Source: Eubacteriales bacterium
GTDB lineage: Bacteria; Bacillota; Clostridia; Oscillospirales; CAG-272
DNA: 64,000 nucleotides
Direction: 5' to 3'
NCBI GenBank assembly: GCA_045128735.1
Contig: JBGVRT010000005.1
Span: forward strand, 7,843-71,842
Shown piece by piece: positions 1 through 44,353 of this stretch (position 1 is its first letter; every line of letters begins with the position of its first letter). The position numbers and the translations under genes are program-made. The notes below the pieces were generated by a model. It did not search any database and had not been told where the DNA came from. It saw nothing but the letters and a program-made list of their open reading frames with translations.

Positions 1-216
1 GCAGAAAACGGAAAATCTGCAACTGTTACGGTGTTAGTTACTCCGGAGCAGGCAGAACTGCTTGCACAGTATAATAGCGTTACATCTCTTCACTTTGCCC
101 TTGTATACCGAGGCGATAAGGAAAAGGCAGATGCCTTTATTAAGGTTCAAGACGATTATTTGAAAAACAATCCCATCGTCAATGAGCCGACCGAGGAGGC
201 AGAAACAAATGAGTAA
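1..216 (+). CDS. C-terminal end of a CpaB/RcpC-like Flp/Tad pilus assembly protein (5' end outside window)
   Basis: Frame 1 is open from base 1 (AENGKSATVTVLVTPEQAELLAQ...). The LVTPEQAxxLA motif is typical of the CpaB C-terminal region. The gene lies directly upstream of TadZ/CpaF/TadB/TadC-like genes. Confidence 0.45.
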   Translation, partial: AENGKSATVTVLVTPEQAELLAQYNSVTSLHFALVYRGDKEKADAFIKVQDDYLKNNPIVNEPTEEAETNE

Positions 217-949
217 AATGATAGCAGTATGGGGCGCGCCGAATTGTGGTAAGACCACGTTTTCAGTAAAACTCGCCGAAACAATTTATAGAAGTTCCGG
301 AGGAAAAAGTGCTGTTATCGTTGTATTTGCTGATAGTCTGACGCCTACGCTTCCCGTTGTCTTTCCAAATCACAAGAGCGAGGAGGTGTTCTCTGTGGGG
401 GCAATTCTTTCAAAACCCGATTTCTTTGCAGATGATGTGGTTTCCAATATCGTTATGTTGAAAAACAAAATGAATCTCGGCTTCCTTGGTTATAAAGAAG
501 GAGAAAACATTCATTCTTATCCAACCTATACAGAAGCCAAGGCAAACTATTTCTACGATACGTTGCTCGGCATCACCGACTATATTATTGTGGATTGTAT
601 GTCAGATCCCGATGGAAACCATCTTACGCGAGTTGCGCTTGAGCGAGCTGATAGTACGGTTAGATTATCGGCACCCGATCTCAAATGTATCAGTTATCAG
701 ATGTCCCAGCAAATGATATTTGCGGCAGCAGGTCTTATGAAGGCGGGAGATCTTCTTGTAATGAATATCCCCCGTGAAGAACTGAACATGGCGGCACAGG
801 ATGCTAAGCATCATCTCGGCAGAATTACTGCGACACTTCCGTTCAGTCCCGCACTTGCGGAACAATATATGGAAGGAAATATGGTTTTGCCACTTAAAGA
901 CAAAAGGTATACACAAGCATTGAAAGAGATTGCGGAAAGGTTGGTATAA
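209..949 (+). CDS. ParA/MinD-superfamily ATPase, TadZ/CpaE-like
   Basis: Deviant Walker A IAVWGAPNCGKTT near the N-terminus. GGAGG lies about 9 nt upstream of the ATG at 209 (track ORF begins at 182). Positioned between the CpaB-like and CpaF-like genes. Confidence 0.6.
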   Translation: MSKMIAVWGAPNCGKTTFSVKLAETIYRSSGGKSAVIVVFADSLTPTLPVVFPNHKSEEVFSVGAILSKPDFFADDVVSNIVMLKNKMNLGFLGYKEGENIHSYPTYTEAKANYFYDTLLGITDYIIVDCMSDPDGNHLTRVALERADSTVRLSAPDLKCISYQMSQQMIFAAAGLMKAGDLLVMNIPREELNMAAQDAKHHLGRITATLPFSPALAEQYMEGNMVLPLKDKRYTQALKEIAERLV

Positions 950-952
950 GCT

Positions 953-2266
953 ATGGCAGTTATCGAATTATCCTCGCTTGTACCGCTGTGTCAAAGCTTT
1001 ATTGCACGAAATTATTCCGCAGCGATCATCGACAAAAGTAAAACCGAGGAACTGAAGGCGTATATAGGTAAATACCTTTACGATACAGATTATTCGGTTG
1101 TTGGCTTTGATACAAAAGAGCTTGTGGAAAGACTCTTTGAAGAAATGGCGGAATATTCGATTCTGACAAAACATCTTGCCGATCCCGATATTGAGGAAAT
1201 CAACATTAACGGTTGGGACGATGTGGCTTTGACACATCTTGACGGAAGAATTGAAAAAGCAAATGAGCATTTCTTTTCCCCGACACACGCAATTGACATC
1301 GTAAAAAAATTGCTTCAGCATTCCGGAATGATTATTGATAATGCTGCACCTATCGCTCAAGGTCATCTTCCAAACAATACCCGTGTAACAGCACTCAAAG
1401 AACCTATTGTGGATACTAATCGAGGAATAGCGGTGTCTATTCGTATGCTTCACCCGCAACGAGTGGATCGTGAAAGTCTGCTTCAAACAGAATCACTTAC
1501 CGAAGAAATGTTGTATTTTCTTGAGGTATGCTTGCGGTACGGAGTGTCATTTGTCGTGGCAGGAAGAACCTCGTCCGGCAAAACTACTCTTCTTAACAGC
1601 TTACTTGGCTCAATTCCGGACGGTAAGCGTATCTACACAATTGAAAGCGGTGCCCGTGAATTGTCTTTGATAAAGAGAGACCAAAACGGCAAGGTAGTCA
1701 ATAACGTAGTTCACACCTTGTCCCGCCCCTCCGACAAAGAAGCGTATGACATATCACAAGAAGATCTTGTAATGGCAGCGCTCAGATTTGACCCTGATAT
1801 TATTTGTGTCGGTGAGATGAGAGACGCAGAGGCGCATTCCGCGGTAGAAGCAAGCTCAACCGACCACACTGTTGTAACTACCGTTCACGGTGGCGGCGGC
1901 AGATATGCCCATCGCAGAATCGCGTTCTTGTCTCAGCGCAGATTTCCAATAGATATGAAAATATCAATGCAACAAGCGGCGCTTGCCTTTCCCGTGGTCG
2001 TGTTTGCCCATAAGCTCGAAGACAATAGCCGTAAGGTAATGGACATTTCAGAATGTGTAGTCCACGACGATGGCGAGCTTGAGTATCGAACCTTATATCG
2101 TTACAAGATCAACAGCAATGAGTATAAGGATGGGCGTTTCCATATCATAGGTGAATTTATCAAAGAAAATACTCCCTCGGACTACCTCTGCACGAAGCTG
2201 TTGCGTGGCGGCATTCCACAAGAAATTCTCCAAAAATTCAATAAAGAAGGAGGAAATACAACTTGA
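953..2266 (+). CDS. cpaF: CpaF/TadA-type (VirB11-superfamily) secretion ATPase
   Basis: Walker A GRTSSGKTT, Asp box/Walker B DPDIICVGEMRD and His box TTVHGG. The 437-aa size is typical of Tad ATPases. Confidence 0.8.
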   Translation: MAVIELSSLVPLCQSFIARNYSAAIIDKSKTEELKAYIGKYLYDTDYSVVGFDTKELVERLFEEMAEYSILTKHLADPDIEEININGWDDVALTHLDGRIEKANEHFFSPTHAIDIVKKLLQHSGMIIDNAAPIAQGHLPNNTRVTALKEPIVDTNRGIAVSIRMLHPQRVDRESLLQTESLTEEMLYFLEVCLRYGVSFVVAGRTSSGKTTLLNSLLGSIPDGKRIYTIESGARELSLIKRDQNGKVVNNVVHTLSRPSDKEAYDISQEDLVMAALRFDPDIICVGEMRDAEAHSAVEASSTDHTVVTTVHGGGGRYAHRRIAFLSQRRFPIDMKISMQQAALAFPVVVFAHKLEDNSRKVMDISECVVHDDGELEYRTLYRYKINSNEYKDGRFHIIGEFIKENTPSDYLCTKLLRGGIPQEILQKFNKEGGNTT

Positions 2267-3189
2267 TTGCTTTATATATTATTGCCTTTGTTCTTGCAGT
2301 CGTCGGTATCATATTTGTTTTGAAGATCACACCGGAGCAAATAAACAACGACATTACGGATCTGTTCGGCAAAGAGGAAACGCTGAAGGATAAATCGCTG
2401 AGCGCACGTGGCAAGAAAAAGAAAAGCAAAATTTTACTTGAACTTGAGCACTTGCACCGAGCATTAAAGGAAACGGGAAAAGAAAAGCAATTTTCATTTG
2501 CTTGTGCGCTGTCGGCACTTTTAATGGTTGCCGGCTGTGTAATTGCAATTGCGATTGATAATGTTTTCTTGATTCCTGTACTTGCCGTGGCATTTGCGAT
2601 ACTGCCGTTTGCATATCTTCACAAAGCCATTGCAATCTATGAGGAAAGAGTCAAGACCGAGCTTGAGTCGGCGCTTTCTCTTATTACAAGCTCCTATATC
2701 AGAAGCGAAAATCTTGTTGCAGCAGTTGAGGATTCCATTCCTAATCTGCATCCACCGCTGAAAAGTGTATTTGAGAGCTTTTTGACCGAGGCATCTGTCA
2801 TTTCTCCCGATATTCGTCAGGCGATTTATCATATGAAGGATAAGGTCAAGAACGATATCTTCAAGGAATGGTGTGATGCTTTAATTGCTTGTCAGAATGA
2901 CAGAGTTCTCATTGACATTCTTCACCCCATCACCAAAAAGCTAAACGAGGAGCGTGTCGTAAATAACTCGCTTCGCACAATGCTTTCCGAGGCACGCCGA
3001 GAATATTGGATGATGGTAATGCTCGTTCTTGCAAACATCCCACTCCTTTACTGTATCAATAAGAGTTGGTACGATTCTCTGATGCACACCACTTTTGGCA
3101 AAATCGTTCTTGCCATCAGCGGCGTGGTGATTATTATAACGGCAATCCGTATGAACAAGCTTACAAAGCCCATAGAATACAAACGCTAA
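2263..3189 (+). CDS. TadB-like inner-membrane platform protein (T2SS-F family, putative)
   Basis: TTG start overlaps the cpaF stop, preceded by AGGAGG. It has an N-terminal TM, a central soluble part and a C-terminal TM cluster. It is the first of two similar about 300-aa proteins after CpaF, as in tadB/tadC. Confidence 0.5.
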   Translation: MIALYIIAFVLAVVGIIFVLKITPEQINNDITDLFGKEETLKDKSLSARGKKKKSKILLELEHLHRALKETGKEKQFSFACALSALLMVAGCVIAIAIDNVFLIPVLAVAFAILPFAYLHKAIAIYEERVKTELESALSLITSSYIRSENLVAAVEDSIPNLHPPLKSVFESFLTEASVISPDIRQAIYHMKDKVKNDIFKEWCDALIACQNDRVLIDILHPITKKLNEERVVNNSLRTMLSEARREYWMMVMLVLANIPLLYCINKSWYDSLMHTTFGKIVLAISGVVIIITAIRMNKLTKPIEYKR

Positions 3190-3201
3190 GGAGGATTGAT
3201 T

Positions 3202-4074
3202 ATGGTAATATTTCAAATTATGATCGGTCTTTTTGTTGCAATAGGTGTTGCGTTCGTTTGGGCAGACGTTGTAAAGCTCCCCACGATGAAGGCGTCAAAG
3301 GCGGCAAACAACCTCGGAAAAAAAGGAAACAAAAAAACAAGCACCATTGACATCTACCTAAAAAACATTTCGGCAAAGCTGGCTGAAAAGATAAGGCTTA
3401 ACGAATACAAAAAAGACCAACTCGCAACTGATCTTAAAACAGCGGGACTTAACATTACTCCCGAGGCGTATGTATCGGATGCGATTGTAAAGTCTGTAGC
3501 AATAGGCCTGCTTGCAATTCCCGCGTTCTTTATTGTTAAAATTCTTGGCTTATTTATCATTTTTGTGGCTGTTGTAATGTATTTCAGCGAAATGAAAAAG
3601 GTCAGCAAGATGATTATCAAAAAGAAACAGAAGATTGAGTATGAGCTGCCACGTATGGTTTCTTCCATAGAAAAAACGATGAAGCACCAAAAAGGCGTTG
3701 TTTATGCTCTTGAAGCGTTCAAAGATACGACTTGCCCCGAGTTAAAGGAAGAGCTTGAAATCACAATTGCGGATATGCGTTCCGGCAGTGAGTTTGATGC
3801 CCTTTCGAGGCTTGAAAGCAGAGTTGGTTCACACGATATGCTTCTTGTGACCAAAGGATTGCGTGGAGCTTTGTACGGAGATGATATGTCTGTCTATTGG
3901 GCAACGATCTCTCTCCAACTATCTGCCGCACAGCAAGAAAAGCTCAAGGAACAAGCCCTTGGAGTTCCCAGAAAGGTGCGAAAGCTTTCCATGGCGCTTT
4001 TATTCTGCTTCATACTCATCTACGTAGCCGTGCTCGGTCAAGTTTTGCTTGGCTCAATGGGCACGCTGTTCTAA
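3202..4074 (+). CDS. TadC-like inner-membrane platform protein (T2SS-F family, putative)
   Basis: ATG at 3202 lies 7 nt after AAGGAGG (track start 3196 is TTG). The topology matches the preceding protein, and it is second of the pair. Confidence 0.5.
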   Translation: MVIFQIMIGLFVAIGVAFVWADVVKLPTMKASKAANNLGKKGNKKTSTIDIYLKNISAKLAEKIRLNEYKKDQLATDLKTAGLNITPEAYVSDAIVKSVAIGLLAIPAFFIVKILGLFIIFVAVVMYFSEMKKVSKMIIKKKQKIEYELPRMVSSIEKTMKHQKGVVYALEAFKDTTCPELKEELEITIADMRSGSEFDALSRLESRVGSHDMLLVTKGLRGALYGDDMSVYWATISLQLSAAQQEKLKEQALGVPRKVRKLSMALLFCFILIYVAVLGQVLLGSMGTLF

Positions 4075-4087
4075 CGGAGGTGAGCAT

Positions 4088-4498
4088 ATGATAAAAGCAC
4101 TAAAAAACAAAAAAGGTGAGGGTTATATCGATGTAGCGGTGGCGGTTCTCGTCATCGCTTTTATATTGGTGATCGTCATTAGTATTTGGTCGATGGTAAC
4201 GCTCAAGCAGGATATGAACTATATGTGCAACGAGCTTCTTGAAATTGCCACAGTCACGGGAAAGATCGGGCCGGAGGTAGAGGCAAGATTTGTTGAACTG
4301 TGTGCTGAGGTTGGCTTTACCCCAACGGTAGCTTTTTCGGCAAACTATTTTGAAACAGCATCAGGAAAGGTACAGCTTGGAGACGTAATTTCATGCACCC
4401 TTTCAACCGAAATGACCTTTATGGGCTTTGGGGGCTTTGAACTCCCATTCGATGTAACGGTCACTCAATCGGGATTATCCCGAATTTATTGGAAATGA
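4088..4498 (+). CDS. Pseudopilin-like protein (DUF4320/TadE-like, putative)
   Basis: N-terminus MIKALKNKKGEGYIDVAVAVLVIAFILVIV: a basic leader, then G-x-x-Y, then a hydrophobic helix, like class III prepilin/pseudopilins. GGAGG precedes the ATG at 4088. Confidence 0.5.
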   Translation: MIKALKNKKGEGYIDVAVAVLVIAFILVIVISIWSMVTLKQDMNYMCNELLEIATVTGKIGPEVEARFVELCAEVGFTPTVAFSANYFETASGKVQLGDVISCTLSTEMTFMGFGGFELPFDVTVTQSGLSRIYWK

Positions 4499-4499
4499 G

Positions 4500-4982
4500 G
4501 TGGTTATTATTAACGCTCTCAGAAACAAAAAAGGATTTAGCTACATCCTTGTATGCGTCATTATTATTTTTGTAGTAATGGTCGTATTCGTAGCTATGCA
4601 ATACGCTTATGTTTATCATATCGCAGAGGAACAGAAAAACGAAACACAACTAAAGCTGGATGGTTTTGTCACAAGAACGGCGGTGGAACAATACGATGCG
4701 CTGAAACAAGGTGAGGCGTGGGTAGATTACGTTGACAGAAACGATCTTGTTGACGGAGCCTATTACTTGCTCGGCTTCCCAACGATCATTACCTTGGAAT
4801 ACCGAGAGCCAATCGCCGTTGCAGGCAAATATTATATGTCAAGACCGACAATATATGCCCTTGCGGGAGATGCCTTCGGTGTCTACGTTCAGTATGAGAT
4901 TGAAATACCGTATGATCTGTTCGGGCGTGAGTTTTCTGTTGTTGTTCCCATTGAAATGGTAAGCAGATATGTAGTCAAATAA
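4500..4982 (+). CDS. Second pseudopilin-like protein
   Basis: N-terminus (V)VIINALRNKKGFSYILVCVIIIFVV parallels the previous gene (ALxNKKGxxYI plus a TM). GTG start immediately after the upstream stop. Confidence 0.45.
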   Translation: MVIINALRNKKGFSYILVCVIIIFVVMVVFVAMQYAYVYHIAEEQKNETQLKLDGFVTRTAVEQYDALKQGEAWVDYVDRNDLVDGAYYLLGFPTIITLEYREPIAVAGKYYMSRPTIYALAGDAFGVYVQYEIEIPYDLFGREFSVVVPIEMVSRYVVK

Positions 4983-4992
4983 AGGAGGAAAT

Positions 4993-5322
4993 ATGAGTAG
5001 AACGCAAAAAATCATTTTCTGTGTTGTGGGTTTGCTCGGTGCTGTTGCCATCATAATCGGCGGAATAGTTTTATCGTCGGATGATGATAAAACTCCCGAT
5101 GAAACCGATCCCCCTGCAATTTCAGATACAAACGACGAGACAAGCGCTCCCGTCGTTCCAGATATCAGACCAAATACCAATGACGATAAAAAACAGCACC
5201 AAGACCGTCCCGGTGATATTCATATCGACATTGAAGAAAAGAACGAAGAATCTACAAGGAATGAGGATCCTGCCGTTGAAGGTGAGGTAGTAATCATTCC
5301 GGGTGTTAAGGAGGACGACTAA
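4993..5322 (+). CDS. Small membrane-anchored acidic protein, unknown function
   Basis: AGGAGG precedes the ATG. One N-terminal TM (IIFCVVGLLGAVAIIIGGIVL) is followed by a D/E/P/T-rich tail. The stop overlaps the start of the adhesin gene. Confidence 0.4.
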   Translation: MSRTQKIIFCVVGLLGAVAIIIGGIVLSSDDDKTPDETDPPAISDTNDETSAPVVPDIRPNTNDDKKQHQDRPGDIHIDIEEKNEESTRNEDPAVEGEVVIIPGVKEDD

Positions 5323-8300
5323 TGAGAAAACACTTTTCTAAGATAATAGCGATGCTTTTGGTTGTCATAACCTTGGTATCACTTTGCGTTGTGCCTGCTT
5401 CTGCTGCGGGCAGTTATCCTATGAGCTGTTCCATTTATTATAAGGATGAAAGCGGTAAGCAGGTAGCGACAACCAAGACCTTCTCGATGAACGCGGCAGA
5501 TACCACCGCACAGCAGACGAAATATTATTCGCCTACTGTGTCGGGTTATGCGCTTAAAAACAGTAGCGATTCGTATGTAACCTACGCGATGATGGACAAG
5601 AGCTTTCCCGCCTCTAACTACGTTAGAAACGGTACTGCGACCTACACCGTATATTACGTTAAGACCGCAAGCTCGACGATCACCTATCAGTATGAAGATA
5701 GAAGCGGTACGGCAGCCCCCACAAAGACGGTAACGGGTAAGCAGGGTGCGAGCTTCTCCGTAACCTCGCCTACTGTTACGGGCTACACGCCGAACAGAAC
5801 TACCGTAACGGGAACTTACGGTGATGGTAACCACAGCGTTTATTACTATGAGAAATCCTACACCATTTCCTACAATGCAAATGGCGGTAGTGGAGCGCCG
5901 AGCTCTCAGACAAAGTGGCATACCACCAACCTTACACTTTCCTCAACCAAGCCTACACGCACGGGTTATACCTTCCAAGGTTGGAGCACTTCAAGCAGTG
6001 CAACAAGTGCATCGTATAGCGCGGGAGGAACATTTTCAACCAATGCGAATACAACTTTGTATGCGGTGTGGGCAAAGAACAAATACACCATTTCCTTTAA
6101 TGCTAATGGTGGTAGCGGTGCTCCCTCAAGTCAGACCAAAACCTACGGGCTTGATCTTACGCTGTCATCCACAACGCCTACGCGAAGCGGATACACCTTT
6201 AAGGGATGGGGAACCTCAAGCTCCTCGACAACTGCATCTTATCAGCCGGGCGGGAAGTACACTTCCAATTCGTCTGCAACCTTGTATGCGGTTTGGGAGA
6301 GTAACGCCCCAACGACCTATACTGTAAGTTATAACGCAAACGGCGGTAGCGGCGCGCCTGCAAGCCAGACAAAGACTCACGGAGTAACACTGACACTCTC
6401 CTCCACAAAGCCGACAAGAAGCGGATATACCTTCCTCGGTTGGTCAACCTCAAGTTCTGCCACAAGCGCATCGTATAGTGCGGGTGGTTCTTATTCTACC
6501 AACGCATCTTGCACGATGTATGCCGTATGGTCTTGTAGCCATTCATCTACTTCACAGCACTATGTCACGGGGTGTGATTGGGAGCGTACTTGTAATAACT
6601 GCGGAGTTGTAACCGCGACAGGTACTACCCACGGCCCGTATAGCTACAGCGATTGGGTATATTATTCCACAAGTCAGCACCGTAGAACCAAGAGCTGTGA
6701 TTACGGTGATTATTCCACCTATGAGTACGGCTCTCACTCCAAGACTACCGAATACGAGCAATACAGTTCTACGCAGCATAAGTATTATAGTTATTGCTCC
6801 ACTTGTGCTTCTATGATCGGCTCTGCAAGCTACGAGGCACACGATTTCACAAGCACTACCTCGGGAGGTAAGACCGTATCGGTTTGTAACGATTGCGGCT
6901 ATACCAAAGAGACAGTACAGACCTATACCGTTAGTTATAACGCAAACGGTGGTAGCGGTGCGCCGAGTTCACAGACCAAGACCTACGGTGTAACTCTTAC
7001 ACTTTCCTCGGTAGTTCCTACCCGAAGCGGTTATACCTTTATGGGTTGGGGTGCTACAAGCTCTTCTACTTCCGCATCTTATTCTGCGGGCGGTAGTTAT
7101 ACCAGCAATTCATCTATCACTCTTTACGCAATTTGGAGCTGCCCTCATTCTTCCGCAACACAGAACTATGTAACGGGTTGCGATTGGCAGAGAGTTTGTA
7201 ACACTTGCGGAACTATCCTTTCTACGGGAACTACACACGGCCCGTACACGTATTCGGCGTGGGAGTATTATTCTACAAGTCAGCACCTCAGATATAAAAA
7301 CTGTGACTACGGTGATTATTCCGAGGCACAGTATCAAGGTCACTCTCTCACTACCAAGTTTGAGCAGTACACTGCATCACAGCACAAGTATTATTCATAT
7401 TGCTCAGAGTGTGACAGTATGGTAGGAACCTCTAATACCGAAGCACATTCCTTTACCTCAACCGAGAGTAACGGAAATATCATCTATACCTGCTCCGAGT
7501 GTGGATATTCCTATTCTGTGAAGAAAACCTATACCGTTTCCTTTAACGCAAACGGCGGTATCAATCCTCCCTCAAGTCAGACGAAGATACACGGTGAAAC
7601 CTTGACGCTCTCTTCTTCTGTCCCCACAAGGGACGGATATGATTTCAAGGGTTGGTCTACTTCAAGCTCTGCGACGAGTGCGACTTACGCGGCAGGCGGC
7701 AGTTATACCTCTAATGCAAATACAACGCTCTATGCTGTGTGGCAAAAGACGATCTTTACTGTGTCGTATAATGCCAACGGAGGTAGCGGTGCGCCTGCTT
7801 CACAGACAAAGACAATCGGGCAGAGTGTAACGATCTCCACGGTTCAGCCTACAAGGACTAATCACGCCTTTATGGGTTGGGCAACGTCGAGTACGGCAAC
7901 CACCCCCGAGTATTACGGCGGCGAGATCTATTATGCCGATGCTTCTGTTACTCTTTACGCAGTATGGATCGAGCGAAACTACGACTTCTCGGTATCCAAC
8001 CTTTCAATCACACCCACTGAGGTTTATCAGTACGAAAAGGTAGGTATTACCTTCAGAGCAGACAGTTGGGATAAGAATCTTCCTTACGACGATATTCCCG
8101 TCGAGGTACTGTTGAATGGCTCCGTTATCTATTCCACCACGGTGGATTTTGTAAAGTACGGAGTTCAGAACTTCACTTTAGACCTTAACATAGGAGCACT
8201 TCTCGGTCAGCAGACCATCGTTGTGCGAGTGAATTGGGCAGACCACAATAATGAAACGAGAACCACAAACAATTCTGTATCTACAACATTCAATGTTAAG

Positions 8301-9278: not shown

Positions 9279-9288
9279 GGAGATGTCT

Positions 9289-10032
9289 ATGGGCGAAGAA
9301 AAAACAAACAATGTCTTGATTCCAATGAAGCTTGAACGGTTAGCGCTATGGACGGAACGAAGCTTATTCACCGAGCAAGGCGAAGCGGAAAAAGGCTTTA
9401 TGGGATATGTAAAAGGCAATTTTGAGGACACGATTCGCCGTATGGATAACGTGGCTTGGTTGCGAAAGGTTGATGATTCATCCGCTTTTCACAATGAGTT
9501 TGAAGCCCTTTTTCATTTTCTTGAAAGCAAGGCTGCGGGATATGTACTCCGTAGCCTTGCAGACAGTACGAAATTCTGCAAAGACAAGCTGCACGAACAT
9601 ATCCCGTATTCCTTTGGGCGTGAATGTTGGGGGTGGCGTGTTATGACAAACGAGTACGTTTGGTATATCGCACTTACCCCTTGGAATACCAAGCACAGCT
9701 TTATGTTGTACTGTTATCACAGAAAAATGCTGATGAGTGCCCTTGCAAAAGCGAAAGGACTTCCCGAAACCTGTTACGGTGTACTGATTTATACGGGTGA
9801 GTGTATCCGTATTCGCTTTGGCGCGGACCGCTACGAGGCACTGCCTCAATTTTCAAACAAAGCACTTGAAAATCGAGGATATGCAAACGAGCAGAATGAA
9901 GCAAGCGGCATTACACCTGCACAAGTCGCGGCTATGGAGAATGGTGTTATTTATGGGTGGGATTCTCCTTATGCCAATCCCAACAACTATGATTTTAACG
10001 GTCATTATTGTATAGCTGAAATGGAGGGATAA
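9289..10032 (+). CDS. Hypothetical protein (conjugation-operon member)
   Basis: AAGGAG lies about 7 nt upstream of the ATG at 9289 (track start 9256 overlaps the adhesin gene). Co-oriented and tightly packed with its neighbours. No motif recognised. Confidence 0.4.
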   Translation: MGEEKTNNVLIPMKLERLALWTERSLFTEQGEAEKGFMGYVKGNFEDTIRRMDNVAWLRKVDDSSAFHNEFEALFHFLESKAAGYVLRSLADSTKFCKDKLHEHIPYSFGRECWGWRVMTNEYVWYIALTPWNTKHSFMLYCYHRKMLMSALAKAKGLPETCYGVLIYTGECIRIRFGADRYEALPQFSNKALENRGYANEQNEASGITPAQVAAMENGVIYGWDSPYANPNNYDFNGHYCIAEMEG

Positions 10033-10033
10033 T

Positions 10034-10411
10034 ATGAGCAAGCAGAACGAGCATGACATCTATCTCATTCCTCCCAATTTCATTGAAGGCGGTACGGTCT
10101 TTGGAGGTATGCTCAAGCTCAGGAACGTAATAGAAGCAGGAATTATTGCTTTGATTATCGGATTCCCGATTTGTATGCTCGGCGTCTCTCTTACAGCCAA
10201 AATCGTTATTCTGTGCCTGACGGCTTTACCCATCGGTATTTTTGCGGTCATAGGCATATATGGTGAGGCTCTTTCGTCCTTTGTATTTAACTTTTTCAAG
10301 TTTCTGAAATTACGGCGCGTGTTACAAAAACCTATTCCCGAACCGGAGCACGTGAAAACAGAAGAAGAGCCTATACCCGAAAAACCGGAAATTGACTGCT
10401 ATCGTTGGTAG
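10034..10411 (+). CDS. Small polytopic membrane protein in the VirB3/PrgI/TcpE position
   Basis: 125 aa with two or three TM helices (IIALIIGFPICMLGV, IVILCLTALPIGIFAVIGI). It lies immediately upstream of, and overlaps, the VirB4-like gene. Confidence 0.45.
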   Translation: MSKQNEHDIYLIPPNFIEGGTVFGGMLKLRNVIEAGIIALIIGFPICMLGVSLTAKIVILCLTALPIGIFAVIGIYGEALSSFVFNFFKFLKLRRVLQKPIPEPEHVKTEEEPIPEKPEIDCYRW

Positions 10412-10425
10412 CGGAAAGGAGTTCT

Positions 10426-12900
10426 ATGTCAAACAACCACCCAAAGCAAGCAGCGGAAACAAAATATCTCAATCCCATCGCAGAATATCTGCCTATTGAA
10501 AAAATAGCCAATGGGATCATTTATACAAGGGATCACCGCTACGTCAAAATTGTAGAGGTGATCCCTATAAACTTTATGCTTCGCAGTCCGAGAGAACAGC
10601 GAAGCATTATTTATTCCTTCATATCCTATCTGAAAATCAGTCCGGTCAAGGTTCAATTTAAGGTGCTTACCAAGCGTGCCGATATCAACCGACACGTAGA
10701 AATGATACACCGAGAAATGGAACGAGAGACAGATGAGCATTGCAAAATGCTTCAGGAGGATTACCTTGATCTGATTGATCGTCTCGGCTCTCGTGAGGCA
10801 ACGACAAGACGTTTTTTCATTGCCTTTGAGCACGAACAGATCGGCGCTCGCAGAGGAAACGAGGAAGCAGAAGCAATTGCCTCCTTGCAAACGACAGCAA
10901 GAACCGCTGTTAATTATCTCAAGCAATGCGGAAATGAAGTTCTCGTGCCGGACAATGAGGATGAATTCTTGGCAGAGGTATTATACAGCGTTCTTTGTAG
11001 GCAAACGAGCAATAAAGTTCCGCTTTCAAAGCGTGTTCAGCAAGTAATTACCGAATACGTTGCGGCGGATAAAAGCACGTTGGACATTCCTTGCACGGAA
11101 TTTATAGCACCGCAGATCTTGGATATGACACACAGCAAATATGTTTGTGTGGACGGACAGTATCAATCCTATCTTCTCGTCCCCTCACAAGGTTATAAGG
11201 CGCAAGTAGCGGCAGGTTGGCTGAGCTTGCTTATCAATGCCGGAGACGGTATTGACGTAGACCTGTTCCTCTCCAAGCAACCGAAGGAGAGAATGGTGCA
11301 AAAGCTCGGTCAACAGCTCCGTATCAACCATTCCAAAATCAAGGAAGTCAGCGATACCAATACCGACTATGACAATCTTGACGATGCGATTCGCAGCGGC
11401 TATTTTCTGAAGGACGGACTTGCGGAAAATGAGGATTTCTACTATATGAATCTGCTGATAACTATCACAGCTTCAAGTGTTGAGGAGCTGGAATGGCGCG
11501 AACGGGAAATGAAAAAGCTCTTACTTTCTCACGACATCAGCACGACCTCGTGTATCTTTCGTGAAGAGCAAGCCTTCCTTTCTTCCTTGCCTCTCGTTTC
11601 TCTTGAAAAGCATCTGTATGAGAGATCAAAGCGGAATGTACTTACAAGAGGTGCCGCAAGCTGTTATCCTTTCGTCAGCTTTGAAATGTGCGACGATAAC
11701 GGTATTTTGCTTGGCGTCAACAAGTTCAACAATTCGCTCACCATAGTGGATATTTTCAATTCAATGGTATATAAGAACGCTAACATATCTATTCTCGGCA
11801 CATCAGGCGCGGGAAAAACCTTTCTTATGCAGCTGATGGCGCTCCGTATGAGGCGAAAAGGTATCCAAGTATTTATTGTAGCACCATTGAAGGGACACGA
11901 ATTTTACCGTGCCTGTCAGAATATCGGCGGCGAGTTTATACAGATCTCTCCCGCATCGAAAAACTGTATCAACGTCATGGAAATACGAAAGTCGGACAAA
12001 ACGGCTGACGAACTGCTTGACGGAGTTGTGATTGAAAAGTCGGCATTGGCATCCAAGATTCAGAGATTGCACATCTTTTTCAGCCTGCTCATCCCCGATA
12101 TGACGCACGAAGAAAAGCAGTTGCTCGACGATGCTCTCATTAAGACTTATGAGGAAAAAGGAATTACCCACGACAACGAATCACTCATTTCTCCCGACAA
12201 TCCGGAAGAATATCGCAAGATGCCTGTACTCGGAGATCTTTACGAAACCCTTGCAACAGATAAGCAAACCAAGCGTCTCGCCAACATTCTCAACCGTTTG
12301 GTAAACGGCTCTGCAAGCACCTTTTCTCAGCAGACCAACGTGAATCTCGAAAACAAATATACGGTCTTGGATATATCCGAGCTTAGCGGAGATCTACTTC
12401 CCGTAGGTATGTTCGTGGCACTTGACTACGTTTGGGATAAAGCAAAGGAAAACAGAACGGTTGAAAAAGCCATCTATATCGACGAGTGTTGGCAACTCAT
12501 CGGTGGCACGGGAAATCACCTTGCCGCAGAATTTGTGCTTGAAATCTTCAAAATCATTCGCGGTTACGGCGGCTCTGCCGTATGTGCAACGCAGGACCTT
12601 AACGACTTCTTTGCTCTTGATGACGGCAAGTACGGAAAAGGCATTATCAACAACTGCAAAACAAAAATCGTTCTTAACCTTGAGGATGAGGAAGCGCAAC
12701 GAGTACAATCCATACTCCGCCTATCAGAAGCCGAGCTTATGGAAATAACCCACTTCGAGCGCGGTAACGGACTTATCAGCACAAACAATAATAACATTTC
12801 GGTCGAGTTCAAATGTAGTGAACTTGAAAAGAATCTTATCACAACAGACCGCCGTGAGCTTCAGGAGATTTTGAAGCAGAAAACGGCGGTGCCCTCATAA
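10426..12900 (+). CDS. virB4: VirB4-family conjugative T4SS ATPase
   Basis: About 824 aa. Walker A GTSGAGKTFLMQ and Walker B region AIYIDECWQL. AAGGAG precedes the ATG at 10426. Confidence 0.85.
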   Translation: MSNNHPKQAAETKYLNPIAEYLPIEKIANGIIYTRDHRYVKIVEVIPINFMLRSPREQRSIIYSFISYLKISPVKVQFKVLTKRADINRHVEMIHREMERETDEHCKMLQEDYLDLIDRLGSREATTRRFFIAFEHEQIGARRGNEEAEAIASLQTTARTAVNYLKQCGNEVLVPDNEDEFLAEVLYSVLCRQTSNKVPLSKRVQQVITEYVAADKSTLDIPCTEFIAPQILDMTHSKYVCVDGQYQSYLLVPSQGYKAQVAAGWLSLLINAGDGIDVDLFLSKQPKERMVQKLGQQLRINHSKIKEVSDTNTDYDNLDDAIRSGYFLKDGLAENEDFYYMNLLITITASSVEELEWREREMKKLLLSHDISTTSCIFREEQAFLSSLPLVSLEKHLYERSKRNVLTRGAASCYPFVSFEMCDDNGILLGVNKFNNSLTIVDIFNSMVYKNANISILGTSGAGKTFLMQLMALRMRRKGIQVFIVAPLKGHEFYRACQNIGGEFIQISPASKNCINVMEIRKSDKTADELLDGVVIEKSALASKIQRLHIFFSLLIPDMTHEEKQLLDDALIKTYEEKGITHDNESLISPDNPEEYRKMPVLGDLYETLATDKQTKRLANILNRLVNGSASTFSQQTNVNLENKYTVLDISELSGDLLPVGMFVALDYVWDKAKENRTVEKAIYIDECWQLIGGTGNHLAAEFVLEIFKIIRGYGGSAVCATQDLNDFFALDDGKYGKGIINNCKTKIVLNLEDEEAQRVQSILRLSEAELMEITHFERGNGLISTNNNNISVEFKCSELEKNLITTDRRELQEILKQKTAVPS

Positions 12901-12917
12901 AAAAGGAGATATTGCGT

Positions 12918-13442
12918 ATGAAAACCAGAGAACAAATTTATAGCGGAGAGGCAGCCTCGCTGCTTCGGGATATCACCACCTATCATTGTGTTGGTGGCAA
13001 ACAGCTTGCAAGATTATACCGAGGCAAAGACAACAAGGTGGAGAATCTTCTTCGCCATCTTGTGAAGCAAGGACGTATATTCTATGACGCCGAAAATGAC
13101 ATCTACTGCGACAACCGAGAGATGCAGGTCGATACGGAAATGCTCACAGCATTGTGGGTGCTTGCGGACTTTGGCGACAAGCTGGAGTATCACAGTGCGG
13201 ATACCTTTCCCACCAAGATCGTATTCTTTGCGGATGGCGAGGTCTATGAAATTATTTGCCTCTCTGCCGACAAAGAAGCAGTTATCCTTTACAGCCTTTC
13301 TACCCGCAAGGAAGGACAAAACGGCAAGCTGATCGTCATCGTTGATGATGCGGATGCAATCGAAAATATCACCCTTGAGGACGCGGTTTTCTGTACGGTA
13401 AATCCCCACGATGGCTCGGTACAGTATTACAAAAAAGAATGA
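12918..13442 (+). CDS. Hypothetical protein
   Basis: GGAG lies 9 nt upstream of the ATG at 12918. Co-oriented in the operon. No motif recognised. Confidence 0.4.
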   Translation: MKTREQIYSGEAASLLRDITTYHCVGGKQLARLYRGKDNKVENLLRHLVKQGRIFYDAENDIYCDNREMQVDTEMLTALWVLADFGDKLEYHSADTFPTKIVFFADGEVYEIICLSADKEAVILYSLSTRKEGQNGKLIVIVDDADAIENITLEDAVFCTVNPHDGSVQYYKKE

Positions 13443-13454
13443 ACAGGAGGTACT

Positions 13455-14117
13455 ATGAACAAAAAAATCATCAATCAACGCTCGGAAGAAATACTCAGAG
13501 AAATCGAAAAACTCACATCAACAATTCGTGCGATGGAACGGTGTGATGTGGAAAACAATCTTGAAAATTTTGAGTTGTTATCCACGGATGCTGCGCTCAG
13601 AGCCGAGCTGATAACCTGCCGTTTGCGGCATTTGGTATATAGCTCTACGAGCGTAAAAAAGCAAGAGTATTTGGCTTCGGCGGGCGTTGTCCAAGGCATT
13701 GAGATTTTCTGTGAAAATGACATTTTAGAGATCACCTTGCCTTGTTTACTTCCCAAGCGAAAGCAAAAACAAAGCACGGAGTTTCTTATAGATCCCATTT
13801 ATTTTACTCTTTGCGGATATGCAGATAAGCACACTCTTCCTCGTTTCAAGGAATGTGTTGTTTGCTTTTCTCACGTGTATAACAAGGAGCTTCCTACAAG
13901 ACGGATCCGAGACTACGATAACCTTGAGCTCAAGCAGTTCTTGGATGTGATCGGAACTTTTGTGATGGAGGACGATAGCGGTCTTTTGTGTGATGCCTAC
14001 AACACCACAGAGCTTGGCGAGAAGGATTGCACCCGTATCACGATCATGGACAAAAACCGCTTCGACGAATGGTTAAAAGAACGAAAAAACAGTCTGAAAA
14101 CCATATCGGATTTTTAA
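13455..14117 (+). CDS. Hypothetical protein
   Basis: AGGAGG precedes the ATG. Co-oriented. No motif recognised. Confidence 0.4.
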   Translation: MNKKIINQRSEEILREIEKLTSTIRAMERCDVENNLENFELLSTDAALRAELITCRLRHLVYSSTSVKKQEYLASAGVVQGIEIFCENDILEITLPCLLPKRKQKQSTEFLIDPIYFTLCGYADKHTLPRFKECVVCFSHVYNKELPTRRIRDYDNLELKQFLDVIGTFVMEDDSGLLCDAYNTTELGEKDCTRITIMDKNRFDEWLKERKNSLKTISDF

Positions 14118-14257
14118 TGCTTTTTCAAAAAATTTGTCCTACATCGTAAAAATCCGCAAAAACCCTTATAACACAAGGATTCTTGTCACATTAAGATATC
14201 GTAATAATACCGAGTCTCTGTGTTGCTCGGTAAACTTTCCACGAAAGAAGGTGTCGT

Positions 14258-15391
14258 ATGTCACACCCCGTCAAACTCCCCGACAAACGGACAATGGCTT
14301 ATGAACTGCTCCAGCTTATAGCCATTTTAGGTGAACTTCCAAGCCATCAACTCACACGTCTGCCGGGTGGAGACAGATACAAAGAACGGCTGCTTACCGA
14401 TCTGAAAAAGCAGAAGCTTATCCGTACATACTACCGTGATGAGATGCGCGGACATAGGCTGACGGCAAAAGCAAAAGCACTTTTGCTTGCGGACAATCCT
14501 TCCCGTTTTTCTTCTTGTCTTGCCAAGTATGCAGATACCAATCACGTACAAAGCGAGCCCCTCCGACGTGAACGGTTATGGCGAATAGCCGAAGCAACCG
14601 TCACGATGAAAAATGCTGATATATCTGTGTTTCCCGACGAACACCCGAGAGCATTCTTGAGAGATTTGGACGTTGCTGACGAAATCGAAATATCGTCCTT
14701 TTATCCATCAAGAGAGGTCACTGCCTATGGCAATGAATTTGTAAGAGCCAAAGGCGCACGATTTATCGGCGTCCTACTAACGGATACGCGAGCTTACATC
14801 GCGTATAACTTGGGAGATTCCCTTATGAAATGGGCATACAAAAGCGAGATGAGAACCAAAGCACAGGTCAGCGACATTCTATGCCGCGAACGCTTTCCCA
14901 ATCAGTATACTCCCGATGACGTGCGCGGAATGATATTCGCAAACAAAATGGATCTTGCCTATGAAATACTATCCAATTCCGGTAACAAGCAGTATTTCAT
15001 TTTGGATGGAAGCTATGAGAATTTTTACTATGTTACCAACGACCAAAAAGGCGAGCTTCTTTTGAGATTTCTATGTGATGCAGAGCTGCGAGAGGAACTC
15101 GACGAGCTTGTGATAGGACATCTTGATCCACCAAATAATCGACTACTGTTTGAACACGATGCTCTTTTAGAGGACGGTACGCCGGTCCTTCTTGCGTATG
15201 ATTGCGACCTCAGACGAATCAGCAAGTTTACGTCTATGCTCAACCTACAAGAAAGACACGGAGTGCTTATGTGCTTTGATTATCAAGCGGATACGCTTGG
15301 CAGATTTTGCGGGGAGCGTGTTACGTTAAAAACCATTGACTACGAAAAAGTGAAAAGGAGGTTTTTCGAAAATAAACAAGAAACTGATTAA
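14258..15391 (+). CDS. Putative winged-helix protein, possibly replication-relaxation-like DNA-processing accessory factor
   Basis: The N-terminal segment AYELLQLIAILGELPSHQLTRL looks like a wHTH. The gene lies directly upstream of the coupling-protein gene. No relaxase HxH or Tyr motif recognised. Confidence 0.3.
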   Translation: MSHPVKLPDKRTMAYELLQLIAILGELPSHQLTRLPGGDRYKERLLTDLKKQKLIRTYYRDEMRGHRLTAKAKALLLADNPSRFSSCLAKYADTNHVQSEPLRRERLWRIAEATVTMKNADISVFPDEHPRAFLRDLDVADEIEISSFYPSREVTAYGNEFVRAKGARFIGVLLTDTRAYIAYNLGDSLMKWAYKSEMRTKAQVSDILCRERFPNQYTPDDVRGMIFANKMDLAYEILSNSGNKQYFILDGSYENFYYVTNDQKGELLLRFLCDAELREELDELVIGHLDPPNNRLLFEHDALLEDGTPVLLAYDCDLRRISKFTSMLNLQERHGVLMCFDYQADTLGRFCGERVTLKTIDYEKVKRRFFENKQETD

Positions 15392-15413
15392 AATACTGTG
15401 CGTAGGACCGCCA

Positions 15414-17213
15414 TTGTTATTTGCCTTGCTCTATGGCGGTGGATATATAGCGCAGTTTATCCGTAACTATACCGAATGGCAAAATTCGGGAGCCGTTATG
15501 GGAGACGGCACCTCTCCGCAAATGCCAACATTCGCTATCGGCGAGTGCTTTCGAGCTATGTTTACAATGCCGTATGGAATCATCGGTATTGCGATATGTG
15601 TGCTTGTGCTTGGACTTCTCGTATTTATGGTTATGCGAATGGGCTTTGGCGACAAGGGAGAATACGACAGGAACCGAAATCTCATTTACTCCAACAAAGG
15701 TACTTACGGTACGGCGGGCTTTATGCCCGAAAAAGAAATAGCCGAGGTGCTTGATGTTGTGGGCGACGTGCGAAAGCACACGGGCACGATTCTCGGAAAG
15801 TTAAACGGCAAAGCAATTTGTGTTCCGAAGGAAACAAGATTAAATGCCAATATTGCCGTTTACGGAGCCAGCGGCTCAATGAAAACAAGAGCGTTTTGCA
15901 TCAACCGCATTTTGCAAAGTGCGGCACGCGGAGAGTCGCTTATCATAACAGATCCCAAGTCAGAGCTATACGAGAAAACAAGCGAGTATCTACGGTCGAA
16001 GGGATACGTGGTTAAGGTATTTAACTTGGTATCACCCGAAAGCTCCGACTCTTGGAACTGTTTATGCGAGATCGAGGGAGACGAGCTTATGGCGCAGCTA
16101 TTTTGCGATGTCATTATCAAGAACACGGGCTCGGAGCGTGGCGATCATTTTTGGGACAACGCAGAAATGAATTTGCTCAAGGCGTTGGTTCTCTACGTGG
16201 AACAGGGCTATCCTTCCGATAGGAAGAATATTGGCGAGGTATACAGACTTTTGACGTTAAATTCAGAAAATGAACTTAACACCTTGTTTGACAAGCTGCC
16301 CATTTCGCACCCTGCAAAAGCGCCTTATGTAATTTTCAAGCAAGCATCCGAAACGGTGAGGACGGGCGTTATCATTGGACTTGGCTCACGCCTTCAGGTA
16401 TTTCAGAACAGCAAAGTCAAGAGCATAACAGCCTATGACGAGATCGACCTTGAGCTGCCGGGAAAGCAACCGTGTGCATACTACTGCATCACAAGCGATC
16501 AGGACAGCACCTTTGACTTCTTATCCTCGCTCTTTTTATCCTTTGTATTCATCAAGCTTGTAAGGTACGCAGATAAAAACTGCGAAGGCGGTAAGCTTCC
16601 CGTTCCCGTTCACGTGCTTGGAGAGGAATTGACCGCTTGCGGTGTCATTCCCGACCTCAGCCGAAAAATATCGGTAATCAGGTCCCGTAATATTTCTATG
16701 TCCTGCGTATTTCAGAATCTTGCAGGACTTCAAAACCGCTATCCGTACAACCAATGGCAAGAAATACTCGGCAATTCAGATATTCAGCTTTTCCTCGGAT
16801 GTGTGGATGAGCTGACCGCAAAATATATCAGCGACCGAGCCGGTGAGGTTTCTATCGCTGTTACGAGCAAGGCAAAGCAGCTTGGTACTTGGCGCGTCAG
16901 CGACTATACACCGGAATATAGGGAGACAAGCGGCGTCGGAAAGCGAAAGCTGCTCACGATGGACGAAGTTTTGCGCCTTCCCATCAACCAAGCATTGATC
17001 ATCATTCGAGGAAGAAAGGTACTCCAAGTAGATAAATACGATTACACCTGCCACCCCGAAGCAGACAAATTGGTTATGTGTAAGGCATCCGAACACATAC
17101 CCGAATGGGTCAAGCGTCCTAAACCCACAGAACAAGAAGCACCGGAACAGCCACCCAAAAAGGAAAAGAAAAAAGTAGTCCCGACCGGTAAGGACTCGGT
17201 AATGTCAGATTAA
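15414..17213 (+). CDS. virD4: VirD4/TraG-family type IV coupling protein
   Basis: N-terminal TM helices, Walker A VYGASGSMKTRAF and TraG/TraD-like length. The TTG start is uncertain (weak RBS). Confidence 0.8.
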   Translation: MLFALLYGGGYIAQFIRNYTEWQNSGAVMGDGTSPQMPTFAIGECFRAMFTMPYGIIGIAICVLVLGLLVFMVMRMGFGDKGEYDRNRNLIYSNKGTYGTAGFMPEKEIAEVLDVVGDVRKHTGTILGKLNGKAICVPKETRLNANIAVYGASGSMKTRAFCINRILQSAARGESLIITDPKSELYEKTSEYLRSKGYVVKVFNLVSPESSDSWNCLCEIEGDELMAQLFCDVIIKNTGSERGDHFWDNAEMNLLKALVLYVEQGYPSDRKNIGEVYRLLTLNSENELNTLFDKLPISHPAKAPYVIFKQASETVRTGVIIGLGSRLQVFQNSKVKSITAYDEIDLELPGKQPCAYYCITSDQDSTFDFLSSLFLSFVFIKLVRYADKNCEGGKLPVPVHVLGEELTACGVIPDLSRKISVIRSRNISMSCVFQNLAGLQNRYPYNQWQEILGNSDIQLFLGCVDELTAKYISDRAGEVSIAVTSKAKQLGTWRVSDYTPEYRETSGVGKRKLLTMDEVLRLPINQALIIIRGRKVLQVDKYDYTCHPEADKLVMCKASEHIPEWVKRPKPTEQEAPEQPPKKEKKKVVPTGKDSVMSD

Positions 17214-17236
17214 AATCAAGAAGGAGGTATTTTACA

Positions 17237-18406: not shown

Positions 18407-18415
18407 TTAAATCTA

Positions 18416-18452
18416 TCGGAGCATTGTCTTTTAGGCAATGCTCCGATTTTTT
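18416..18452 (+). terminator. Rho-independent terminator
   Basis: TCGGAGCATTG / CAATGCTCCGA stem (11 bp) followed by TTTTTT. Confidence 0.75.
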
Positions 18453-44222: not shown

Positions 44223-44230
44223 TTCCCCCC

Positions 44231-44303: not shown

Positions 44304-44353
44304 TTGAAAACGACAAATGTTAGCCAACATCAACAACAATAGGAGGTAAAAGA

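Follow-up and report, generated by a model that had tools for sequence, protein, structure and literature searches.

The 64,000-nucleotide (nt) stretch of DNA analysed here, referred to as the window, opens with a string of genes in which the components of a Tad-like pilus machine and a giant secreted adhesin stand among the genes of a conjugative type IV secretion system (T4SS). Judged from gene order, the Tad genes, the adhesin gene and a gene of a family named here hyp258 form a cassette of ~12.2 kb, set in a conjugation backbone that normally does not have it at this site. Comparison with its relatives shows that the element family has several alternative cassettes for filaments or adhesins, of which this is one. 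We lean towards the view that it is an interchangeable surface-filament cassette that would give contact between donor and recipient cells. Positions 1-18447 are best explained as part, namely the 3' two-thirds, of a main transfer operon that belongs to a large conjugative element. The host is best seen as an uncultured member of the Eubacteriales from the gut, with relatives of the Oscillospiraceae type.

A cassette between conserved transfer genes

Gene order was obtained from a listing of open reading frames (ORFs) and from scans of the Pfam and NCBIfam families, which reproduced the order claimed for positions 1-17213 in an earlier reading of the letters (hereafter, the original prediction). 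Coordinates are collected in Table 1. The genes upstream of the window were read from a near-identical Eubacteriales metagenome-assembled genome (MAG; JAZQYP010000025.1, L003) and from an identical contig of 4.5 kb (L001). Most of the sequences compared are MAG or metagenome contigs.

The element family has a conserved operon, which runs from a winged helix-turn-helix (wHTH) regulator through u180, u148, u221, u318, u276, VirB3-VirB4, DUF5697, DUF6100, a 377-aa protein and VirD4 to an S1-domain protein. In some relatives the u276 family member has a C39 peptidase domain. Two loci with a VirB4 86% and 82% identical to that of the window (L029 and L030, respectively) show this backbone with no Tad genes at the junction. 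Their wHTH gene is followed by genes for proteins of 177, 174, 236, 299 and 464 aa, the last of which has a Peptidase_C39_2 domain at its C-terminus, and for a VirB3-VirB4 fusion, then DUF5697, DUF6100, the 377-aa protein, VirD4 and S1. In the window lineage, ~12.2 kb, from the pilin genes through hyp258, lie between u276 and virB3 (site 1). A metagenome scan gave 80 loci with a VirB4 70-85% identical to that of the window, of which 59 span the u276/virB3 junction; none of the 59 has Tad genes there.

Transfer-operon genes flank the Tad block on both sides, six more of them upstream in the near-identical contigs. The possibility, raised in the original prediction, that a chromosomal Tad locus merely lies next to the element is refuted by these conserved flanks. 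Moreover, the arrangement of the window is kept in another locus (L111) at 57-86% protein identity, and thus is not a one-off.

Continuity of the gene string

Positions 1-18406 hold a single string of co-directional genes on the + strand, from the end of cpaB to the gene of the S1-domain protein. Neighbouring genes overlap or are separated by gaps of at most 23 nt, with the sole exception of a gap of 140 nt, and a Shine-Dalgarno sequence precedes most of them. Promoters and terminators were called by consensus scans only. On the + strand, 22 terminator-like matches were found within 1-18400, which is chance level (19.3 +/- 5.6 expected), and all of them lie inside genes. A strong intrinsic terminator is met at 18415, directly after the S1 gene. 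The junctions, together with the lack of any above-chance terminator before this position, bear out the idea that pilus genes, adhesin gene and T4SS ATPase genes belong to one uninterrupted, translationally coupled string. From this, we infer that the cassette is co-transcribed with the T4SS genes. The original prediction had ended the string at 17213. Its tight coupling was confirmed, but the unit runs ~1.2 kb further: the S1 gene comes after VirD4 in every relative with a long enough locus, which, together with the terminator, places the end of the unit beyond that coordinate.

The 140-nt spacer holds a hairpin ~27 nt before the gene of the 377-aa protein. Its motif, TACC..G..loop..GGTAAAA, is kept at 80% or more in the spacers of 40 distinct relatives. 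The hairpin could be a candidate origin of transfer (oriT), a promoter or a regulatory site.

The Tad-like machine

CpaF was recognised directly. Its top match among the sequences of solved structures (PDB) is Caulobacter CpaF (4.7e-30), ahead of FlaI and VirB11. A CpaB/RcpC protein is identified by the Pfam SAF and RcpC domains on the complete 269-aa protein encoded upstream; with hhalign, a weak match (6.6%) was obtained to one canonical SAF-domain protein. TadZ, TadB and TadC are not recognised by Pfam or NCBIfam, beyond weak MinD matches for TadZ. Single-sequence comparison with Pfam T2SSF reached one of 19 members of the TadB and TadC families (E 0.041) and neither protein of the window, and a PDB profile search with TadB and TadC gave no match; the identity of these two proteins came solely from profile-profile comparison. 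For this purpose, profiles of TadZ, TadB and TadC were built from homologues in the fetched loci and compared by hhalign with the genes beside cpaF in three annotated proteobacterial Tad loci. Eight negative controls all gave 2.2% or less. TadZ matched canonical TadZ at 94.1% (E 1.3e-7), over the ATPase domain only, and the paired TadB and TadC platform of Tad systems was also recovered (Table 1). A homologue of TadC on the plasmid pTPHSE1 is annotated 'secretion protein F'. For TadZ, the ATG preceded by a Shine-Dalgarno sequence at 209 was chosen as start; the ORF could open at 182.

Two pseudopilin genes follow tadC. In relatives, the gene of the second one (pp2) always comes after the DUF4320 gene. 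Both proteins carry the leader motif common to the DUF6133 pilins described below (KKG-EGYIDVAV and KKG-FSYILV). Against canonical TadE and TadG, hhalign gave no significant match (0.3% and 0.1%), and the DUF4320 protein of one relative has a weak match to the Tad family PF13400 (2.9e-4).

The remaining parts lie upstream of the window. In L003, the order is the wHTH protein, u180, u148, u221, u318, u276, three pilins, an A24 peptidase and cpaB. The three tandem pilins, of 76-80 aa, belong to DUF6133 (1e-22 to 1e-25). They carry a KG/EGYIDTGV motif, and their architecture, with long leaders (…KGEGYIDTGVKIIIGVVVG…) and one hydrophobic helix, is Flp-like. None of the three matches the Flp family at E <=0.01, and the G/XXXXEY processing motif is absent. 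In L003, the third pilin gene is followed by a terminator-like hairpin; a terminator directly after pilin genes is common. Directly upstream of cpaB, L001 and L003 encode a 197-aa Peptidase_A24 protein (4.4e-7) with no methyltransferase domain. With these pilins, the peptidase and the full-length CpaB, the Tad-like machine is complete. A Flp pilin and a prepilin peptidase had been predicted to lie upstream: both functions are represented there, the pilins being of the DUF6133 and not of the Flp family.

The adhesin and its companions

The adhesin gene begins on the last base of the gene upstream, its ATG sharing that base with the stop codon. The protein has a Sec signal peptide, two duplicated Cys-rich inserts of 130 aa that lie between its Flg_new repeats and contain CxxC pairs, and a beta-rich C-terminal region of ~460 aa. 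A search for motifs and anchors found neither LPXTG nor a C-terminal transmembrane (TM) anchor. Homologues have a DUF8195 domain at the C-terminus. Between the window and L003, the adhesin is the most divergent gene (92% identity, versus 97-100% for the others), and its gene has no DNA-level tandem repeats.

The hyp258 gene, which ends the cassette, is often accompanied by an adjacent paralogue and is absent from Tad-less relatives. The protein has no Pfam, NCBIfam or PDB sequence match. A confident AlphaFold2 (AF2) model was obtained (pLDDT 85.6, pTM 0.81), for which Foldseek found no match in the PDB at E <=0.001. The idea that hyp258 might be a substitute wall hydrolase was dropped, as the protein has no signal peptide, TM segment or hydrolase fold.

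The DUF4320 family comprises 483 clusters at 50% identity. In some of its members (P0351, P0390, P0356, P0384, P0344), a KKGEGY(I/L)D leader is followed by Cys-rich and repeat-rich extensions of 500-1285 aa. These fusion proteins appear to be modular minor pilins, and they show that the pseudopilin family is able to carry large surface modules. By eye, the extensions resemble BspA-type leucine-rich or DUF285-like repeats.

A second site and the exchange of modules

In the relatives, varied modules are found at another place of the operon (site 2), between the S1 gene and the h174/DUF3268 genes. In the window this site is empty: h174 begins 31 nt after the stop codon of S1, a stretch that holds the terminator only, versus cassettes of 1-12 kb in relatives. 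Site 2 is likewise empty in L111, the other locus described above with Tad genes at site 1. Thus, among the loci that can be scored, Tad genes at site 1 and cassettes at site 2 are mutually exclusive.

Several of the site-2 modules are themselves filament or adhesin systems. Tad parts are found in 10 of the 32 loci with at least 3.5 kb after S1. Two of these (L069, L080) have a divergent and complete Tad module, with Pfam T2SSE, two T2SSF, a Flp1_like pilin and a pseudopilin; eight more loci start alike. In the isolate Subdoligranulum variabile TSDC17.2-1.1, a circular plasmid of 247 kb (OY725878; L116) has a full Tad module at site 2, in the order DUF4320, pp2, A24, CpaB, TadZ, CpaF, TadB, TadC and pilin. 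Elsewhere, the site holds a sortase pilus (SpaA-type pilins and two class C sortases in Vescimonas fastidiosa pMM35_02), adhesins with thioester domains (TED) or of SpaA type (L033 and L092, LPXTG-anchored in L033), a sortase (L038) or SpaA-type proteins (L029-L032 and L035). In some loci, unrelated genes are found instead (AAA_14, AAA_21, PG_binding).

Clustering by VirB4 distance interleaves the elements with Tad at site 1 and those with SpaA at site 2 within one subclade. The VirB4 of the window is 86% identical to that of the SpaA-carrying L029, versus 79% for L111. This pattern points to module swapping. A single ancient insertion of the Tad genes is not favoured over swapping, the elements with Tad at site 1 forming no clade by VirB4 distance.

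The same Tad clade beside other conjugation backbones

A genome scan with CpaF gave 27 species-level loci in gut MAGs of Eubacteriales, Oscillospiraceae, Christensenellaceae and Lachnospiraceae. The order from pilins to adhesin is common to all CpaF loci that are long enough. Flanks of 10 kb were compared, so that the loci near which T4SS genes are not in view carry little weight. In L016, the Tad module comes directly after VirB4; in L024, a distant VirB4 lies ~8 kb downstream of the module. The commonest arrangement, termed type B (CpaF 73-87% identical), has the module at the opening of an integrated element, after a ParB-like gene and beside housekeeping genes. There, hyp258 comes after the module, then a hyp258 paralogue and a MutS_I/SNF2 protein of 2500-2700 aa. 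Another contig, which shares synteny with type B over six of these downstream genes, continues into NikA, relaxase, VirD4, TrbL_2, PrgI and VirB4. One locus reached through a helicase homologue (L118) proved to have an unrelated context and was set aside.

Plasmids provide further cases. In Terrisporobacter petrolearius pTPHSE1, two DUF6133 pilins, A24, CpaB, TadZ, CpaF, TadB, TadC, DUF4320 and pp2 are encoded directly upstream of VirD4, which is followed by a pLS20_p028-family protein, a C40 peptidase and a MobP2 relaxase, all on one strand. The same Tad block is found ~7 kb upstream of VirD4 in Clostridioides difficile pCd5_2. A plasmid of Oscillospiraceae MB08-C2-2 has the Tad block and a 1610-aa protein, then Toprim, DUF3852 and TrbL genes. 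Megablast of positions 1-17213 against the PLSDB plasmids gave no match. Altogether, the link between this Tad clade and conjugation genes is found again in five or more gene arrangements, four plasmids of cultured isolates among them. These isolate plasmids make the idea of a mating contact directly testable.

Possible roles of the cassette

If the cassette serves donor-recipient contact, as we tend to believe, CpaF together with TadB and TadC would assemble a thin pilus, and the pseudopilins would present or hold the adhesin. The filament would bring the donor into contact with recipient cells, for mating-pair formation or for its stabilisation, and the DNA itself would pass via the VirB4/VirD4 channel. 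The cassette would be the functional equivalent of the sortase pili, of the thioester or SpaA adhesins and of the other Tad modules that sister elements carry after S1. Such a mating role can reasonably be inferred from position and recurrence. The presence of other pili or adhesins in the slots of sister elements further suggests that these Gram-positive systems, supposedly without pili, may catch their mating partners by means of one. Still more tentatively, and as a possibility that we would not yet call probable, the loci may represent an unrecognised class of conjugative pilus in gut Clostridia: a Tad-like filament with DUF6133 pilins and modular DUF4320 pseudopilins, which would travel with conjugative plasmids and integrative and conjugative elements, be co-expressed with the T4SS, carry exchangeable giant tip adhesins and set the recipients that can be reached.

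Several points weigh against a mating role. The lack of Tad genes at site 1 in all of the 59 relatives implies that the pilus is dispensable for the T4SS backbone. The T4SS link of the type B loci joins two contigs (L113 and L119), and is thus drawn by synteny; in addition, ~10-12 kb separate the type B Tad block from the genes of the relaxase and the T4SS. An internal promoter could lie in the 140-nt spacer. Neither the pilins nor the pseudopilins can be detected as members of the Flp or TadE/F families. In the mating scheme, the adhesin would be held by the pilus; the extensions of the DUF4320 fusion proteins have no detectable homology to the adhesin of the window (best E 0.061), so that tip display of this adhesin is hypothetical. 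Finally, Flg_new adhesins and Tad pili are colonisation factors elsewhere, and a cargo role fits the same gene map.

In this last scheme, which we consider rather unlikely, the Tad pilus and the adhesin would attach the host to mucus, food particles, host cells or biofilm partners, and the element would carry both as a benefit to its host, with no direct part in DNA transfer. Tad pili are gut colonisation factors in Bifidobacterium, and the presence of a Listeria-Bacteroides repeat adhesin, which is the fastest-evolving gene, agrees with such a role, as does the dispensability of the cassette. The variable content of the cassettes (Tad, sortase pili, TED/SpaA, AAA_14, AAA_21, PG_binding) is also typical of cargo. 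However, the cassette lies between essential transfer genes, with overlapping or abutting frames and no terminator, which is not typical of a cargo region. The Tad clade stands beside conjugation genes in the arrangements enumerated above, and no fetched locus with a long flank was shown to be free of such genes; the mutual exclusion of site-1 Tad and site-2 cassettes, in the loci that can be scored, also speaks against cargo. It should be noted that a colonisation role and a mating role do not exclude each other.

It is improbable that the Tad apparatus is a part for crossing the envelope, acting either as a short pseudopilus (or piston) that opens a way across the thick wall or as an exporter of the adhesin, and that it would thereby replace a lost C39-type hydrolase domain. 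Type IV filament machines do serve as pseudopilus secretion devices in type II secretion systems, the adhesin carries no anchor, and u276 is without the C39_2 domain of its closest relatives, a domain that is missing from the whole window. Nevertheless, three paralogous major pilins followed by a terminator suggest a real filament, and the signal peptide of the adhesin is an ordinary one. Furthermore, relatives with Tad genes at site 2 (L116 and L109) retain the C39 domain, and many C39-less relatives are also without Tad genes. A non-conjugative DNA function, in which the pilus would bind and import DNA as do the Flp pili in the transformation of Micrococcus luteus, is more improbable still. 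The role of Flp pili in DNA uptake is the subject of a review (PMC6370729), and the cassette is located among DNA-processing genes. Yet ComEA, ComEC and DprA were not seen in the general family scans of the window, and the module is constantly accompanied by a large adhesin rather than by a DNA receptor. As for a chance adjacency or an assembly artefact, with a chromosomal Tad locus abutting the element or a chimeric contig, its probability is practically negligible: the source is a metagenome-assembled sequence, but the same junctions are found in independent assemblies (L001, L002, L003 and L111), to which 36 near-identical VirB4 clusters on many contigs can be added, and backbone transfer genes lie on both sides of the cassette.

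Relation to known systems

Gram-positive conjugation is usually described as a matter of surface adhesins and close contact, not of pili. In the open-access literature searched, no paper was found that describes a pilus of the Tad type within a conjugation operon of Gram-positive bacteria, nor one that mentions DUF6133, DUF4320, DUF5697 or DUF6100.

The cassette recalls the type IVb thin pilus of R64 (IncI1) and the type IVb pilus of PAPI-1 of Pseudomonas aeruginosa, which are also filament machines located in the transfer region of a conjugative element and separate from the T4SS channel. The R64 thin pilus serves to find mates in liquid, with a dedicated tip adhesin. Both of these are, however, type IVb systems of Gram-negative bacteria and have secretins; in R64, a shufflon generates variation of the PilV adhesins. 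The window, in contrast, has a Tad-type machine (CpaF, TadB/C, TadZ, CpaB) with DUF6133 pilins, in a monoderm and inside the T4SS operon, together with a separate, Sec-secreted repeat adhesin. The type IVb set (PilQ-type ATPase, PilS pilin and PilV adhesin) is not found in the window, where the ATPase and platform are of the Tad type and the adhesin is of the Flg_new type.

Among Gram-positive elements, the closest parallels are PrgB of pCF10 and CnaC of Clostridium perfringens pCW3, both adhesins that are encoded by the element in or near the transfer locus and that promote transfer or are needed for it. In pCW3, the adhesin gene cnaC is needed for conjugative transfer (PMC10234813). These proteins are anchored to the wall by sortase and have no filament machine, whereas the adhesin of the window is unanchored and accompanied by a complete type IV filament apparatus. 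The sister elements of the window, with their LPXTG, TED or SpaA adhesins or their sortase pili, are of the PrgB/CnaC kind.

With the canonical Tad/Flp (type IVc) systems of Caulobacter, Aggregatibacter and Bifidobacterium, the cassette has in common CpaF, the TadB and TadC pair, a TadZ-like ATPase and CpaB (SAF and RcpC domains), as well as a short A24 peptidase without the methylase domain, small pilins with long leaders, two pseudopilin-like proteins and a single-locus organisation. It differs by its DUF6133 pilins with a G/EGYID motif in place of G/XXXXEY, its DUF4320 pseudopilins, its lack of a secretin, a TadZ without the N-terminal domain, and its context, a conjugation operon rather than a stand-alone adhesion island. 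Among type IV filaments, Tad loci are the class that is carried by plasmids and transferred most frequently (PMC6668835).

The backbone, for its part, is related to the Firmicutes-type T4SS (VirB4 of the CD1110/Mbov_0397 kind, VirD4 of the CD1115 kind, PrgI/VirB3) by its VirB4, VirD4 and VirB3-like proteins, whose order is conserved across thousands of gut metagenome contigs. It departs from this type by a VirB4 under the CD1110 cutoff, by its uncharacterised partners (DUF5697, DUF6100, the 377-aa protein and S1), by the missing hydrolase domain and by the embedded pilus cassette.

The element family whose transfer operon here includes a full pilus machine is very abundant in gut metagenomes of humans and animals. 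The swapping of Tad pilus, sortase pilus and thioester adhesin at two fixed slots suggests that the contact device may be a modular, fast-evolving determinant of the range of transfer. If true, this bears on the movement of genes, including resistance genes, among strict gut anaerobes. Should the proposed class of conjugative pilus be real, the view of monoderm conjugation as pilus-less would need revision.

The conjugation backbone and other features of the window

Table 1. Features of the first 18,447 nt of the window.
Feature	Positions	Strand	Basis and remarks
cpaB/rcpC-like gene, 3' end (last 72 codons)	1-216	+	Frame-1 translation; full 269-aa SAF+RcpC (Pfam) protein in L001
TadZ/CpaE-like MinD-family ATPase, 246 aa	209-949	+	Walker A GAPNCGKTT; weak MinD matches
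CpaF/TadA-type assembly ATPase	953-2266	+	Pfam T2SSE 4.3e-27
TadB-like platform protein	2263-3189	+	4 hydrophobic segments; hhalign vs canonical TadB 95.5%, E 1.3e-8
TadC-like platform protein	3196-4074 (or from 3202)	+	hhalign vs canonical TadC 95.8%, E 7.4e-9
Pseudopilin 1, DUF4320	4088-4498	+	Pfam DUF4320 3.8e-30; prepilin-like N-terminus KKGEGYIDVAV
Pseudopilin 2 (pp2), DUF4320 paralogue	4500-4982	+	hhalign vs DUF4320 family 95.9%, E 5e-9; N-terminus NKKGFSYIL
Small single-TM protein, acidic tail	4993-5322	+	TM at residues 3-31; weakly conserved in relatives
Secreted adhesin, 1318 aa	5322-9278	+	6 Flg_new (Listeria-Bacteroides) repeats, Pfam 4.2e-87; TIGR02543
hyp258, cytoplasmic-looking, 247-258 aa, cassette end	9289-10032	+	51 homologue clusters, all beside a Tad/adhesin module
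VirB3/PrgI-like membrane protein	10034-10411	+	Pfam PrgI weak, 0.004
VirB4 ATPase	10426-12900	+	Pfam P-loop_TraG 1e-19, AAA_10; ATG with Shine-Dalgarno at 10426, ORF opens 10405
DUF5697 protein, conserved backbone	12912-13442	+	Pfam 2.2e-44; after VirB4 in relatives reaching past VirB4
DUF6100 protein, conserved backbone	13455-14117	+	Pfam 2.9e-76; position conserved
Only long spacer of the string	14118-14257	.	140 nt; hairpin ACCGAG-11 nt-CTCGGT at 14209-14231
377-aa conserved backbone protein	14258-15391	+	Directly before virD4, also in relatives reaching there
VirD4 coupling protein	15414-17213	+	Pfam T4SS-DNA_transf 1.5e-46, TraG-D_C 2e-24
S1-domain protein, last gene of the unit	17237-18406	+	Pfam S1 1e-11
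Strong intrinsic terminator	18415-18447	+	15-bp stem, 7 GC pairs, T run; directly after the S1 gene

The VirB3/PrgI-like protein is 66% identical to the N-terminal part of VirB3-VirB4 fusions, which NCBI names 'PrgI family'. In the window, VirB3 and VirB4 are encoded separately, by ORFs that overlap by 7 nt; in most relatives (for instance L029, L030 and L114) they are fused in one gene, for a protein of 934-990 aa. VirB4 matches the NCBIfam families CD1110 (6.9e-75; 253 bits, below the equivalog cutoff of 325) and Mbov_0397 (1.4e-72), as well as the TraC and VirB4 families. It has more than 8000 homologue clusters at 90% identity, 36 of which are 98-100% identical to the protein of the window. 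VirD4 matches conju_CD1115 with 404.9 bits, above the cutoff of 250. The 377-aa protein had been labelled as a wHTH protein. This label was not confirmed, as no match was found in Pfam, NCBIfam or the PDB; its single-sequence AF2 model is unusable (pLDDT 36.5), and hhalign gave no significant match to the upstream wHTH protein, to DUF5697 or to DUF6100. A transfer operon would not be expected to have an S1 RNA-binding-domain protein among its fixed members.

In the original prediction, genes for a VirB6-like channel protein and a wall hydrolase were said to lie perhaps upstream of the window. Membrane proteins are indeed encoded there, among them u221 of L003, with 5 hydrophobic segments and 77-89% conservation, a candidate VirB6-like channel protein without a family match. 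The C39-type hydrolase domain, on the other hand, is missing. The u276 protein corresponds to residues 1-276 of the 464-aa homologue (6061-6891 in L003 versus 8458-9852 in L029). The C39_2 domain of this homologue is found in 11 relatives; in a search that covered the C39 type, it was absent from L002, L003 and the entire 64-kb window (tblastn E > 10). The domain is cut off at the cassette junction, so that the element may be without the usual wall hydrolase. In L029, a PhdYeFM/ParE toxin-antitoxin pair lies between VirB4 and DUF5697 (13131-13692): small modules also land inside the operon.

No relaxase family turned up in the general family scans of the window, which included no search aimed at relaxases. 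No Rfam family and no tRNA were found in the window; consequently, no tRNA integration site is visible. Other hallmarks of conjugative elements are present downstream of the operon. Positions 28253-31261 encode a 1002-aa fusion of an N6-methylase and a SNF2 helicase, and, on the - strand, 53232-63912 encode PcfJ, DUF7666, PcfK, a DnaG-zinc-finger/YodL protein and, towards the end of the window (62596-63912), a RecD-like helicase. Tyrosine recombinase-like genes are located at 35017-35856 and 50410-51507.

Between 37281 and 49540, six genes of the + strand include five with camelysin/TasA-like (Peptidase_M73) N-terminal regions, and two proteins of ~980-990 aa encoded there carry beta-helix repeats. 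This region may be another surface-fibre cluster of the element, unrelated to the first. An unusually long ORF of 1010 aa (41307-44339, - strand) runs antisense across the whole gene of the 980-aa beta-helix protein (41280-44222), and is probably a by-product of the repeat composition.

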